IMG/VR virus record: IMGVR_UViG_2880406838_000004
Reading direction: 5' to 3' (one strand)
Source: a virus
Lineage: Duplodnaviria; Heunggongvirae; Uroviricota; Caudoviricetes
Length of the DNA: 57,859 nucleotides
Made by a program: the position numbers. Shown here piece by piece: positions 9,001 to 15,000 of this stretch; positions within the stretch are counted from its first letter, which is position 1, and each line of letters opens with the position of its first letter.

Positions 9001-12000
9001 CTGCCGGAGGAGTATGGCCCAGCCTTCCCAGCAATCGTCGATTGTTATACCAGTCCACCCACGTTAGTGTGGCCAGTTCCACTTCTGCACGGTTTTTCCA
9101 GCTCTTACGGTGTATTACCTCCGCTTTGTAAAGACCATTGATGCTCTCAGCCATCGCGTTGTCATACGAGTCGCCTGTACTCCCTGTTGATGCCAGTAAT
9201 CCGGCTTCTTTTAGTCGCTCCGTATAGGCCAGTGACACATACTGAGAGCCTTTATCGCTGTGATGGATGGTGCCAGACGGACGACGGGCCCACAACGCCT
9301 GCTCCAGCGCATCCAGCACGAATGTCGTTTCCATAGACGATGAGACCCGCCACCCCACGATGTATCCGGCAAACACATCAATGATAAACGCCACATAGAC
9401 GAAGCCCTGCCATGTGCTGACGTAAGTAAAATCAGCCACCCACAGCTGGTCAGGTCGTTCTGCCACGAACTGACGGTTTACGCGGTCGCCTGCGGCAACG
9501 GCTTTCCGGCTGATGGTCGTACGGACCTTTTTACCCCGGAGAACACCGGCAAGTCCCATAACCGCCATGAGACGTGCCACTGTACATCTGGCCACCCTGA
9601 TTCCTTCCCGTAACAACTGACGCCAGACTTTACGCACACCGTACACCTGATGATTTTCATCGTATACGCGCTGTATCTCTCTCTTCAGCCAGTCGTCGTG
9701 CTGCGCACGGGCACTGCGTTTATCCGGATGATGTCGCTGTTGCTGACAATGGTAATACGTTGACGGGGCAATATGCAGTTCGCTGCATACCGGTCCGACC
9801 CCGTACTGCTCACGCAGCTTATCCAGCAGTGGCATCATTTTTTCCAGAGGCGGTCGAACTCCGCCTTCGCAAAATAAGCGGAAGCCTGGCGAAGGATATC
9901 GTTACTGCGGCGCAGTTCACGATTTTCACGTTCCAGCTCTTTCAGACGCTGACGTTCAGCGCTGGTGAGCCCACCATCACCGCCCCCGGTATCCCGCTCA
10001 TGCTGGCGAACCCAGACACGCAGAGTCTCCGGCGTACAGCCAATCTTTGGGGCAATGGAACAAATTGCCGCCCACTGTGAGTCATATTCATCCTGACTTT
10101 CCAGAACCATACGAATCGCCCGCTGACGGACTTCGGGGGAAAAACGAGTATTTTTAGTCATCCTGTTTACCTCTTTCTCAGGGAGTTTAGTCTCCAGGAT
10201 TTCCGGGGCGGTTCAGTGGTGCGGTGAGTGAATCAAAATGCCAGGTTAATGGCAACAAGATAGAACCATGTGCAGCACTGGCAAAGTCCCTTGAGCATGA
10301 TGCTGAATACACGATGCGAAAAGGTCTGCTGATATACAAAATCTGGAATGAGAGTTTAACTCGCGGTCCTGATTTTGTGATGTTGCGTTCCGGTGAATTT
10401 TCTAAATTACCAGTTCGGGTTTCATTTTGTCCGTTCTGTGGTGAAAGTCTGAAAACGTGGGAGAACAGAAATGAATGAAATTAAAGAAATACCAGTAGTA
10501 CGTGATGAATATGGCTGCTGGACGCATCCTGAATATGAAAAATTCTGTGACGGTCGGGAATATATTTCAACGGAAGAGTTTAACGCCTGGATGGAGGAAA
10601 ATAATCTTCAATACGTCCTCTGCTTCAGAGATGAAGGATGTGCTGACCTTGATGCGTGTGATGCTGATATTTCTGCATGGGAACCGGAACGACCAGAGGG
10701 CAATGGATGGTTTATTGGTTCAATACATGACACCGAAGATGGCCCGGTTTGTGTATGGCTGAGAAATAAGGCCGAAGCATAAAGGCTATAAACCGACTAA
10801 CAACTAAATACTGAAGATTTAAATCAGAAACGATTTTTATTAAACCCTTAACCGGAGGGATTCTGCACCCTCAGAACATCAGGAGGCCGTCTGAAAGGGC
10901 GGAACAGATAATGCTTACGTTGAAACATTTTATCGACATACCAACATGGTTAGCCGTCATTGCTTTTGTTAAAATACACATCCACTTTTCTGTGCAATGT
11001 TTAACCACTGGTCATATCAAATGGCATTCATGCGAACCATGATATAGAATCATGGCTTGAGAGAGTCGATGAAAGCGCAACTATGGTATGAGAGACATTG
11101 ATGTAAGAAAGGCTGTGCATGCCAAGATTCTGAGAGATCATCATAAAGATCCTGACACCCTAATCATTGATGAGTTTACGATGAATCTAGGGGCTAGCAG
11201 AGCTGATATAGCAGTGATCAATGGGCTTATACATGGTTATGAGTTGAAGAGCAAGAGTGATAACTTGCTCAGATTACCAGCGCAGGTGCAACATTACTCA
11301 TCAGTGATGGATAAAGTAACTTTGGTTGTCTCTGATTGCCATCTTTATGATGCTTTAAGCATAGTTCCATCATGGTGGGGGATAAAGCAAGTTACGCAAG
11401 GTGCACGGCAAGGTATCCATTTAAAAACAATTCGAACTAGCAAGTTGAATCCACAAGTGGACAAACTTTCCTTAACAATGCTTCTTTGGAAAGATGAATT
11501 GCTTTCCCTATTAAGTGATGTAGGGGAGCTACAGAATTTGAAAAATAAACCTAAACGCGTCTTATGGTCAAAACTCGCCAATAGTATGGATGTTGGCGAG
11601 CTTCGTGAAGCTGTTCGAGTTAAACTTAAAGCCCGTAAAGAGTGGCGAGTTGCTCAACAACCTTAGTTATGTGATGGTTTTGCCCAATCCTACGCCATAC
11701 CTCTGGGCTACCAAATTTATAGTTACCAGAGGGATTGGCTTTGTAGGCTTGATACTCGTTTGCATAATATTCTATGTCTCTATCTCCCGCACAGAATGTA
11801 GGCCCTGAATATTCTCGATGAGCAAGAATATCCTCACTATGTTTACCATATTGTTCATAACCAAAGCGATTAGCTACTCTTCCTCGAAATACCCAAAAGT
11901 CATTATCTCCAGAGTATCTGACGCTGGCAGATACGCTAGGGAATCGCGTCGAAAGCCTATTAAAGTCGGGGTGCTGTACTCCATAATCACTATAAATCAC

Positions 12001-15000
12001 ATTTCTGGCAAGTTCTTTTCTATTCATTAAACTCTGCCATAAAATCCACTCGATTCGAGGTTGAGAATATAGACCAACAGAAATATCACTGAGATCTGTA
12101 GGAAATGAACCCCCAGAAAGAATCACTTTTCTGTATTCATTGAGGTGCGCCAGATTGTTTATCAATCCCATTGCCAAAGTATATAGTTCGCCGGAATTAA
12201 TTTTATCCTCGGTTAACTCATCTCTTAAGTCAATAATTATATCAATATTTGATAAAGGAATTCCCAGATGATTAATGTAATGCGTTATTAATTGTGGGTT
12301 AACCAGATCTAACGTGGTTAATCTCAAGCATATTTCATTCTGCATTAATTCATCAATCGCTCTTTTATAGTTAGATGGGCGAGTTGGTGAACTGACAGGA
12401 ATAACTCTTATCTCCATATCTCTAACTTGATTAACCGCATTTATTATAGGGTAATGATCTTCAGGAGAAATAAAATGCTCTTCAATTAATAATCCATCAA
12501 TATAAACACCTTGCATATCTGAGCAAGATTTTGAGACTTTCTTTCCGAACTCTATAAGAGTCTCGTTATAACTCTTTAAGGCAATACCTGAATCAGGGTC
12601 AATTGGCACTGGTTCAATTTCGAGTAATGGCAAAATTTTTGATTTCTTTTCAATGGATAGCTGCGATAAAGCTGATAACTCAGAACGTTTCGCTTTCAGA
12701 ATAGGAATATATGAAATTGTCATGTTAATACCTTATACAGAATCAATTAACAATTAATGGTTCTTCGGACATTGAAATTTATATCGCAAAAATTGGCAAA
12801 CTCTCCTCGACTACTCACTTGTGGGTATCCTGGCGTAAAAGGAATGACTTGGCAATACCCGGTGTGATCATAAGTCATTGAAAATGATCATTTTTATCAG
12901 TCTTTCTTCCATGATGAATGCTAATGCCATTTGATTTGTTGAGGTGAAAACTGTTAAAAATCAAAACGATGTAATTGAAATGAACGTTCGGTAGCATTCA
13001 CGCTTTAAATGTTTCTTTTGTGCTGATTGGATGAATTTGGGTCACTTCTGATGAGAGATGTTGCAGGAAAAGAAGTTGGCATTGATCTATTGGATAGTTA
13101 GAATTGCTGCGGGTGCTTGAGGCTATCTGCCTCAGGCATGAACACCAAAAGGCAGATAGAGAAAAGCCCCAGTTAACATTACGCGTCCGGCAAGACGCTT
13201 AACATTAATCTGAGGCCAATTTCATGCTTTGCACATGTAGGTTAGCCTCTTACGTGCCGAAAGGCAAGGAGAAGCAGGCTATGAAGCAGCAAAAGGCGAT
13301 GTTAATCGCCCTGATTGAACCGCCCCGGGTTTCCTGGAGAGTGTTTTATCTGTGAACTCAGGCTGCCAGATCATCGTTTCCGATGGAAGCATAATAAGCT
13401 TTTTCTGCTTCTGCCGGAGGAGTATGGCCCAGCCTTCCCAGCAATCGTCGATTGTTATACCAGTCCACCCACGTTAGTGTGGCCAGTTCCACTTCTGCAC
13501 GGTTTTTCCAGCTCTTACGGTGTATTACCTCCGCTTTGTAAAGACCATTGATGCTCTCAGCCATCGCGTTGTCATACGAGTCGCCTGTACTCCCTGTTGA
13601 TGCCAGTAATCCGGCTTCTTTTAGTCGCTCCGTATAGGCCAGTGACACATACTGAGAGCCTTTATCGCTGTGATGGATGGTGCCAGACGGACGACGGGCC
13701 CACAACGCCTGCTCCAGCGCATCCAGCACGAATGTCGTTTCCATAGACGATGAGACCCGCCACCCCACGATGTATCCGGCAAACACATCAATGATAAACG
13801 CCACATAGACGAAGCCCTGCCATGTGCTGACGTAAGTAAAATCAGCCACCCACAGCTGGTCAGGTCGTTCTGCCACGAACTGACGGTTTACGCGGTCGCC
13901 TGCGGCAACGGCTTTCCGGCTGATGGTCGTACGGACCTTTTTACCCCGGAGAACACCGGCAAGTCCCATAACCGCCATGAGACGTGCCACTGTACATCTG
14001 GCCACCCTGATTCCTTCCCGTAACAACTGACGCCAGACTTTACGCACACCGTACACCTGATGATTTTCATCGTATACGCGCTGTATCTCTCTCTTCAGCC
14101 AGTCGTCGTGCTGCGCACGGGCACTGCGTTTATCCGGATGATGTCGCTGTTGCTGACAATGGTAATACGTTGACGGGGCAATATGCAGTTCGCTGCATAC
14201 CGGTCCGACCCCGTACTGCTCACGCAGCTTATCCAGCAGTGGCATCATTTTTTCCAGAGGCGGTCGAACTCCGCCTTCGCAAAATAAGCGGAAGCCTGGC
14301 GAAGGATATCGTTACTGCGGCGCAGTTCACGATTTTCACGTTCCAGCTCTTTCAGACGCTGACGTTCAGCGCTGGTGAGCCCACCATCACCGCCCCCGGT
14401 ATCCCGCTCATGCTGGCGAACCCAGACACGCAGAGTCTCCGGCGTACAGCCAATCTTTGGGGCAATGGAACAAATTGCCGCCCACTGTGAGTCATATTCA
14501 TCCTGACTTTCCAGAACCATACGAATCGCCCGCTGACGGACTTCGGGGGAAAAACGAGTATTTTTAGTCATCCTGTTTACCTCTTTCTCAGGGAGTTTAG
14601 TCTCCAGGATTTCCGGGGCGGTTCAGATCGTCATCTGTTTAACCGTCATAGTGACGGCACTGGTAACGAGGAAAGACCTCTGCGAGGTACGAATCCGAAC
14701 CGGCCAGACGGAGGTCGCTGTCTTCACAGCTTACGAACCTGAGGAGTAAGAGACCAGGCGAGGGAGAAATCCCTCGCCACCTCTGATGAGTCAGGCATCC
14801 TCAACGCACCCGCACTTAACCCGCTTCGGCGGGTTTTGTTTTTTCCTGGCATTCTGGTTTACAATTCGCACGTCAGCCTGAACACCTGACACCTGCTGCG
14901 CCAGCAGAGAAAACAGATGGTGCACAAAACCAAATTTCACAATTCTGATACCGACCTTGCCATCCGGCATGGGCGGCGTTCACACGCATTTAAAACCGAC

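Follow-up and report, generated by a model that had tools for sequence, protein, structure and literature searches.

Results and Discussion

A convergent gene pair in a lambdoid prophage of E. coli O111

The window analysed here is a stretch of 57,859 nucleotides from the Caudoviricetes record IMGVR_UViG_2880406838_000004. It is 100% identical to, and collinear with, positions 1345182-1403040 of the Escherichia coli O111 str. RM9322 record NZ_CP028117.1, according to which the source is a lambdoid prophage integrated beside potC. The prophage carries an AT-rich cargo segment with two convergent genes, open reading frame (ORF) A and ORF B, which encode members of the cII/sce7726 and Beta_protein families. 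An earlier note on this DNA had singled out the pair as a candidate undescribed defence or toxin module. The coordinates, lengths, convergence and 41-bp overlap that it gave for the two genes are all present, and both ORFs, whose possible disruption was checked, are intact and full length. The features of the segment are as follows.

10903-13098: AT-rich cargo segment of about 2.2 kb with the two-gene module, delimited by breaks in backbone homology and by guanine-plus-cytosine (GC) content
10903-11087, plus strand: non-coding region upstream of ORF A, with one promoter-like site (prediction)
11088-11666, plus strand: ORF A, 192 amino acids (aa), cII/sce7726 family, with a predicted N-terminal PD-(D/E)XK domain and a helical C-terminal domain
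11626-11666: 41-bp overlap of the convergent 3' ends, with the 13 final codons of either gene, among them those for K181 and R183 of cII
11626-12723, minus strand: ORF B, 365 aa, Beta_protein family (PF14350), modelled as a single-domain divergent triosephosphate isomerase (TIM) barrel
12724-13098, minus strand: non-coding region upstream of ORF B, with a Shine-Dalgarno-like AAGG 8 nt before the ATG

The GC content is 0.32-0.43 over positions 10600-13000 compared with 0.50-0.57 in the flanks, and the cargo between 10937 and 13074 has a value of 37.9% compared with 50.2% for the whole window, in line with the AT-richness first described. Related phages without the cassette are homologous to the backbone up to 10902-10925 and again from 13099 onward, and in those phages the same slot is filled by unrelated small ORFs; the segment is a discrete cargo in a variable lambdoid slot. 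In the RefSeq annotation of the identical record, the neighbours are a replication-region YdaT gene, a helix-turn-helix (HTH) protein gene and a DUF977 gene on one side and hok, DUF968, RusA and DUF1133 genes on the other, which confirms a position between replication genes and DUF968/RusA/Q-like genes. The upstream ORFs at 10224-10478 and 10471-10782 were considered as cassette genes and rejected, as they correspond to phrog_4030 and phrog_1372 of the phage backbone. Two small ORFs in the non-coding flanks (10871-11042 and 12747-12997) are unsupported and were treated as spurious.

ORF A is a predicted PD-(D/E)XK nuclease

ORF A, which includes RADIAVINGLIHGYELKSKSD, scores 191.1 bits (cutoff 70; E = 1.7e-56; residues 1-184 of 184) against the NCBIfam model for sce7726, NF033832. 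Further matches are to PADLOC 'cll' (2.4e-28) and phrog_984, and the RefSeq name of the protein is 'sce7726 family protein' (WP_001204666.1). Homologues of ORF A carry the Pfam family PF26915, Phage_P4_cII; for ORF A itself, this assignment rests on the precomputed labels of the homologues and not on direct scoring. At E-values of up to 1e-3, the cII family comprises 5,456 clusters at 50% identity. Some database names for cII relatives are 'regulatory protein' and 'DNA repair protein MmcB-like'.

ORF A was modelled with confidence as a restriction-endonuclease-like alpha/beta core, the fold of PD-(D/E)XK nucleases. In the model, D40 lies on the strand formed by residues 37-44, and E52 and K54 on that formed by residues 48-54. 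Together with E29, which is also conserved, these residues occupy the first three core strands and are invariant in 60 of 60 homologues as well as in eight distant ones, including P4 cII. For ORF A and ORF B taken together, the active-site residues are kept in the P4, PD-lambda-2, Firmicutes and Candidate Phyla Radiation (CPR) members. The structure closest to the model is that of an MmcB-like protein; fold and site agree with the HHpred result for P4 cII in Table S3 of Rousset et al., which is MmcB-like with 99.8% probability (PMC9122126). At the sequence level, ORF A has no match to the MmcB-like, NucS or restriction-endonuclease families of Pfam, and comparison of both cassette proteins with the sequences in the PDB yielded nothing meaningful (best E-values 0.5-1). 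ORF A is distinguished from MmcB-like proteins, NucS and restriction endonucleases by its extra helical C-terminal domain and its obligate TIM-barrel partner. The earlier proposal of a PD-(D/E)XK core is thus borne out by the modelled fold and by the invariant E29/D40/E52-x-K54 set. Judged by profile matches and model, ORF A is a predicted nuclease, an undisrupted member of the cII/sce7726 family in which the PD-(D/E)XK site is complete and invariant.

ORF B is a Beta_protein with a predicted TIM-barrel fold

ORF B, which begins MTISYIPILKAKRSELSAL, matches the PF14350 Beta_protein profile with 177.4 bits (cutoff 27; E = 7.2e-52), its residues 5-356 covering profile positions 1-341 of 342. It matches two PADLOC models for PD-Lambda-2_C over its full length (PDLC03983, 1.4e-40; PDLC03984, 7.8e-38) as well as phrog_9159 (1e-144), and RefSeq names it 'beta family protein' (WP_000156210.1). 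The PADLOC model 'beta' (PDLC02985), on which P4 beta itself scores 621 bits, is matched at 1.5e-4 by residues 4-40 alone. The earlier note had assigned no domain to ORF B, a statement superseded by the full-length PF14350 match. Its suggestion of a resemblance to the beta/sce7725-like families was correct, the profile searches placing ORF B in PF14350 and ORF A in sce7726. On the NCBIfam sce7725 model, NF033831, ORF B remains below the cutoff (12.3 bits against 60; E = 0.097; residues 5-39 alone).

The N-terminus of ORF B displays the motif Y-x-P-x-L-K-x-K-x-x-E. Conserved residues are E15, D76, D165, D246 and H351, in addition to K12, R223, Y270 and H350, and the catalytic-looking residues are invariant in 40 of 40 homologues. 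Foldseek ranked triosephosphate isomerase and TrpA first, and the top structural matches of the model were Obc1, a de novo designed barrel and MTHFR, with sequence identities of 6-14%. From profile and model, ORF B is an intact Beta_protein, predicted to fold into a TIM barrel in which acidic and histidine residues form a conserved cluster. A literature search turned up no mechanistic study of the Beta_protein family or of gop, its results being dominated by papers on TGF-beta and amyloid-beta.

Relation to characterised systems

In P4, the gop-beta-cII locus protects against lambda and P1 (Rousset 2022, PMC9122126). The gop gene is toxic without beta (Ghisotti 1990, as cited in Rousset, PMC9122126), and the locus has been described as resembling a toxin-antitoxin (TA) system in which beta counteracts Gop toxicity (PMC9122126; bioRxiv 10.1101/2023.04.06.535777). 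A phage accessory gene, orf184, triggers cell death via gop-beta-cII (Silas et al., bioRxiv 10.1101/2023.04.06.535777). The genes are non-essential in P4 (PMC9122126), and a 2024 survey still lists those of gop-beta-cII as having unknown function. Their order is gop (+), beta (+), cII (-), with beta and cII convergent and separated by a 27-bp gap that contains an annotated terminator.

ORF B aligns over its full length with P4 beta (23% identity, E = 1e-8) and ORF A aligns with P4 cII (28% identity, E = 2e-17). In both loci, beta and cII are convergent, carry the same catalytic residues and lie in an accessory hotspot of a mobile element. The P4 locus is known to DefenseFinder as 'Rst_gop_beta_cll' and to PADLOC as gop/beta/cll, of which the cll model is matched here, as given above. 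There are also differences. Gop, a protein with two transmembrane segments that is considered the killing component in P4, has no counterpart in the window: a tblastn search with P4 Gop against the whole window gave a best E-value of 0.11, at the non-adjacent positions 15599-15745. P4 cII has an extra C-terminal stretch of about 80 aa, which the 192-aa ORF A lacks, and the 27-bp gap with its terminator contrasts with the 41-bp overlap in the cassette.

PD-lambda-2 from E. coli ECOR42 has three components, of which A is HigB-like, B is a toxic Xre-peptidase, and C, which resembles beta, is needed for defence but not for neutralising B (Vassallo et al. 2022). ORF B matches the C models, both proteins belong to the Beta_protein family, and C is needed alongside an effector; moreover, in other phyla, PD-lambda-2-type A and B genes and cII flank the same beta gene. 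In contrast, a genuine PD-lambda-2 locus among those we collected (L053; A 3e-30, B 8e-184, C 5e-135) scores 448 bits on the C model, compared with 137 bits for ORF B, and lacks cII. No ORF of 60 aa or longer precedes ORF B, and none of the ORFs next to the pair matches the HigB-like A or any other PADLOC model. In tblastn searches of the window, the best E-values were 0.12 for A, elsewhere in the window, and 0.27-0.61 for B (Xre HTH plus M78 peptidase), at non-adjacent positions. A hidden third gene for gop, a HigB-like protein or an M78 peptidase was thus ruled out in the window by PADLOC models and tblastn.

With the sce7725/sce7726 pair the cassette shares a bona fide sce7726 member, ORF A, and a partner with the N-terminal motif given above; that partner, however, belongs to the Beta_protein branch of Pfam and not to sce7725 proper. 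The record of phage Rac-SA53 names the pair 'CII phage-like protein' and 'beta'. With these names, those in RefSeq and the homology to the published gop-beta-cII genes, the cassette can no longer be called undescribed. It is likely a gop-less two-gene variant of a known defence locus, named already at the family level.

Conservation and distribution of the pair

We surveyed about 130 loci, starting from both genes. The beta side, with ORF B as the query, comprised 45 viral contigs and individually fetched loci; the cII side, with ORF A as the query and one genome per species, gave 249 matching genomes, of which 80 loci were kept. The latter span Gamma-, Alpha- and Betaproteobacteria, Myxococcota, Acidobacteria, Firmicutes, Cyanobacteria/Melainabacteria, Patescibacteria, Chloroflexi, Nitrospirae, Gemmatimonadetes and Elusimicrobiota. 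On the beta side, a convergent cII-like gene with a 3' overlap was found in 51 of the 52 non-P4 loci (14-122 bp, most commonly 41 bp), the exception being the PD-lambda-2 locus L053. Viewed from cII, a convergent beta gene is present in 72 of 78 informative genome loci, and the 3' ends overlap in 70 of these 72 (4-134 bp, median 47).

The genes accompanying the pair vary. A PD-lambda-2B-type Xre-M78 peptidase gene lies directly upstream of beta in 17 of the 72 paired loci (24%), seven of which also have a HigB-like gene, whereas gop occurs in none of the 80 cII-side loci. In at least 39 of the 72 paired loci, no ORF of at least 60 aa lies upstream of beta at a distance of up to 40 bp, and the plain two-gene form is the commonest arrangement among the loci checked for accessory genes. 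These comparisons indicate that beta with a convergent, 3'-overlapping cII is a conserved core, from Enterobacterales to Patescibacteria, to which swappable toxin modules are added. Pairs of the ORF A/ORF B type look obligate and occur in phages, prophages and islands across many phyla; by the same comparisons, the O111 cassette is the bare beta-cII core.

Four-gene loci with a HigB-like gene, an Xre-M78 peptidase gene, beta and a convergent, overlapping cII, such as L055 (Candidatus Daviesbacteria, 2517-5621), were seen in CPR bacteria, Acidobacteria, Gemmatimonadetes and Nitrospirae; L097, L107, L118, L122, L135 and L144 have the same layout. The published PD-lambda-2, which lacks cII, may be a reduced form. 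In three Melainabacteria/Obscuribacterales loci (L134, 3959-6828; L136, 3329-6195; L143, 4001-6885), the partner of cII is not beta but a DUF4388 + DUF4384 protein of about 713 aa, and the convergent 3' overlap is kept. One Xenorhabdus cII has a kinase fragment and a PP2C protein as its partner.

Within E. coli, the cassette is present in 93 of 5,426 complete genomes. This recurrence, together with that of the pair in many phyla and with profile E-values of 1e-52 to 1e-144, argues against ORFs A and B being chance reading frames. Many O111 genomes have the cassette in identical, undisrupted form, and an Stx1d prophage contains an IS-free copy (IS, insertion sequence) that is 96.6% identical and has the same flanking non-coding DNA. 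In phage Rac-SA53, IS1 is inserted upstream of ORF A at AAACATTT. Relatives of the pair are located between gpA and HicAB/portal in a P2-like prophage of Dickeya and next to an IS in Psychrobacter. The sites of such relatives are known anti-phage hotspots or variable slots, namely the P2 gpA-portal region, the P4 hotspot, the lambdoid nin slot and the lysis-terminase interval. The last of these holds a second E. coli variant in another lambdoid prophage (L059, 3134-4763; GCA_023722765.1), between the lysis cassette and terminase Nu1, with a 206-aa cII (54% identity to ORF A), a 355-aa beta and a 59-bp overlap; its protein cluster has 203 member sequences. A further locus, L063, is from PP818812.1, 'Actinobacillus phage vB_Apl-pPE4', attributed to Actinobacillus pleuropneumoniae. 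Its nin region and hok/sok are 85-95% identical to those of E. coli lambdoid phages, and the host attribution looks questionable.

Gene overlap and expression signals

Given the overlap of the two genes, each mRNA would extend into the other gene, and the gene layout thus suggests mutual antisense transcription of ORF A and ORF B. RNAfold predicts hairpins with U tracts 25-60 nt past each stop codon, which would hold the antisense overlap to roughly 100-170 nt. The predicted signals are the following.

11021-11050, plus strand: promoter-like site before ORF A, ATGGCA-18-TAGAAT (consensus scan, prediction)
11566-11605, minus strand: hairpin followed by UUUU, candidate terminator of ORF B, past the ORF B stop codon and within the coding sequence of ORF A (RNAfold free energy -17.9 kcal/mol, prediction)
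11700-11733, plus strand: hairpin with a weak U tract, candidate terminator of ORF A, 3' of the ORF A stop codon and within the coding sequence of ORF B (RNAfold free energy -13 to -15.6 kcal/mol, prediction)

The consensus promoter scan as a whole was uninformative, with 8 sites compared with 7.9 expected from shuffled sequence. Separation of the two genes is probably prevented by the conserved 3' overlap, which may also couple the expression of beta and cII via antisense RNA.

Proposed function and alternatives

Homology to components of two validated systems makes a defence or toxin role for the cassette plausible. With somewhat more confidence than doubt, we favour the view that the segment is a horizontally acquired prophage 'moron' carrying the minimal two-gene core of a beta/cII defence superfamily, and that this core is an abortive-infection or superinfection-exclusion module with a nuclease as its effector and beta as its sensor or regulator. 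In a lysogen, beta would be a conserved sensor or regulator hub, probably catalytic, that holds the effector silent until a phage cue appears. In the minimal form, this effector would be the cII nuclease, which would cut phage or host DNA so that the infection stops. The same hub would be wired to an extra membrane toxin, Gop, in P4 and to the Xre-M78 peptidase/HigB-like pair in PD-lambda-2. Beta is the candidate for the hub because no other component is common to all three of gop-beta-cII, PD-lambda-2 and the two-gene form, whose toxic partners differ; since the cassette contains no other toxin gene, the cII nuclease is the sole candidate effector of the two-gene form.

Several observations weigh against this proposal. 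Its main weakness lies with cII. The demonstrated toxin is a different protein in both characterised systems, Gop in P4 and the M78-peptidase B in PD-lambda-2, and PD-lambda-2 defends without any cII; cII could therefore be accessory and not the effector. With regard to the two-gene form, Rousset et al. cloned the three P4 genes together (PMC9122126), and the beta-containing P4-hotspot arrangements noted in their tables all have three genes (PMC9122126). ORF B is no more than a distant relative of P4 beta, its match to the PADLOC 'beta' model being confined to the N-terminus, and its barrel has no specific structural neighbour, so that the structure does not indicate an activity. Furthermore, the consensus scan of the minus strand found no promoter for ORF B, and the prophage around the cassette shows decay: it contains three IS copies, and its portal gene is broken.

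A more far-reaching reading, which we regard as possible but doubtful, is that the beta-cII pair is an autonomous and very widespread immune system, of which gop-beta-cII and PD-lambda-2 would be elaborated or reduced offshoots. Beta would then be a catalytic sensor with an activity new to immunity that controls the nuclease, and the 3' overlap would serve regulatory antisense coupling, not compaction.

It is unlikely that the cassette is a plain TA or addiction module (cII as the toxin and beta as the antitoxin, or the reverse) that stabilises the prophage segment and has no dedicated anti-phage role. The TA-like description of the P4 locus, where beta counteracts Gop, would agree with such a module, as would the tight linkage, mobility and AT-richness of the pair and its vicinity to the TA loci hok/sok and RelE/RelB. 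Yet both characterised relatives confer phage defence, the beta homologue of PD-lambda-2 is not an antitoxin, a 365-aa TIM barrel with a catalytic-looking site would be atypical for a simple binding antitoxin, and the pair sits in phage defence hotspots.

The patchy occurrence of the genes among the E. coli genomes, their replacement by unrelated cargo in sister phages and their varying positions among phage types and non-phage islands are the behaviour of accessory or conflict genes and not of core life-cycle genes, and in P4 the genes are non-essential. A role in the phage life cycle, either in lysogeny control, as in the historical name 'cII', or in DNA repair or recombination by an MmcB-like nuclease, is thus quite improbable, even though the database names quoted above, the MmcB-like closest structure, the HHpred assignment of P4 cII and the proximity, within the nin region, of RusA and other genes for recombination and repair would all be compatible with it.

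Slightly less probable again is a silent passenger, i.e. a cassette that is intact in sequence but unexpressed or non-functional in a decayed, IS-ridden prophage. Three IS629 copies, a disrupted hok, broken portal and DUF6645 genes and the lack of a convincing ORF B promoter speak for this possibility, against which stand the full length of both ORFs with all conserved residues, the identity of the cassette in many O111 genomes and its close match, non-coding flanks included, in the IS-free Stx1d prophage. Moreover, 590 bp and 870 bp separate the flanking IS copies from the start codons of the two genes. The least probable alternative is a restriction-modification-like pair in which the beta barrel would act like TGT/DpdA in modifying DNA or a nucleotide and cII would restrict unmodified incoming DNA, as TGT/DpdA-type barrels match no better than dozens of unrelated TIM barrels, P4 and PD-lambda-2 genetics indicate abortive infection and toxin control and not self/non-self marking, and PD-lambda-2 is functional without cII.

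Beta is the protein shared by two anti-phage systems that are currently defined by their toxin genes. The conserved unit indicated by our survey is beta plus the cII nuclease, with toxins as optional add-ons, and two separately named systems would then share one core. The standard detection tools, PADLOC and DefenseFinder, need the full published gene sets; under these rules, they would call two-gene cassettes incomplete or overlook them. Minimal as it is, the O111 cassette offers the simplest two-gene model for sensing or catalysis by beta and for the question of cII as an effector. If the favoured abortive-infection or superinfection-exclusion reading is true, it represents one more defence-like cargo in the prophages of Shiga-toxin-associated E. 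coli. Should the cassette be inactive alone, the toxin partners would be essential, which would be equally informative for the known systems.

Insertion sequences and other features of the prophage

The two IS629 copies around the cassette and the adjacent hok/sok locus, already recognised in the earlier note, were found at the following positions, together with a third IS copy.

8906-10215, minus strand: left IS629/IS1203, 1310 bp, target duplication GTG, annotated by PGAP as 'IS3-like element IS1203 family transposase'
13111-13315, plus strand: sok/hok leader and first 12 hok codons, as context (Rfam RF01794, 13111-13286, 119.8 bits)
13316-14625, minus strand: right IS629/IS1203, 1310 bp, target duplication GAT, inserted in hok
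21348-22657, same orientation: third identical IS629/IS1203 copy, interrupting a DUF6645 gene

The three copies are 100% identical and lie in one orientation within 14 kb; such close direct repeats could drive deletions. The left copy provides the stop codon of the DUF977 gene. In strain RM9131, this copy is found elsewhere, and there is a different left junction without part of the DUF977 gene and the upstream ORFs. Both insertions are common to RM9322 and O111:NM 14614 only, most cassette genomes having one or neither. An IS629 composite transposon was ruled out by this distribution and by the target sites, which are duplicated separately for the two copies, over 3 bp each (GTG/GTG and GAT/GAT), in place of one duplication shared at the outer ends. 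The separate target duplications and the restriction of the shared pair of insertions to two genomes argue that the insertions were independent and that the bracketing of the cassette is incidental.

The hok gene starts at 13281 and is split after codon 12 by the right IS629, with the sok/mok leader intact upstream; RefSeq still calls the downstream remnant, from 14626 onward, a 46-aa 'Hok/Gef family protein'. In the annotation, the portal gene (31528-34274) is broken in two, the pieces being frameshifted and partial, and BLAST revealed self-similarity over about 530 bp at an offset of 162 bp around 33114-33805 in this region. The prophage is probably defective.

According to the RefSeq annotation of the identical record, a RelE/ParE-RelB type II TA pair is located at 5781-6252 in the prophage immunity region. 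The right end of the prophage (50772-57112) encodes the type III secretion effectors nleL (50772-53120) and espN (53711-57112), followed by fragments of GogB and NleB; these effector genes and fragments mark it as an effector-exchange prophage of enterohaemorrhagic E. coli O111.

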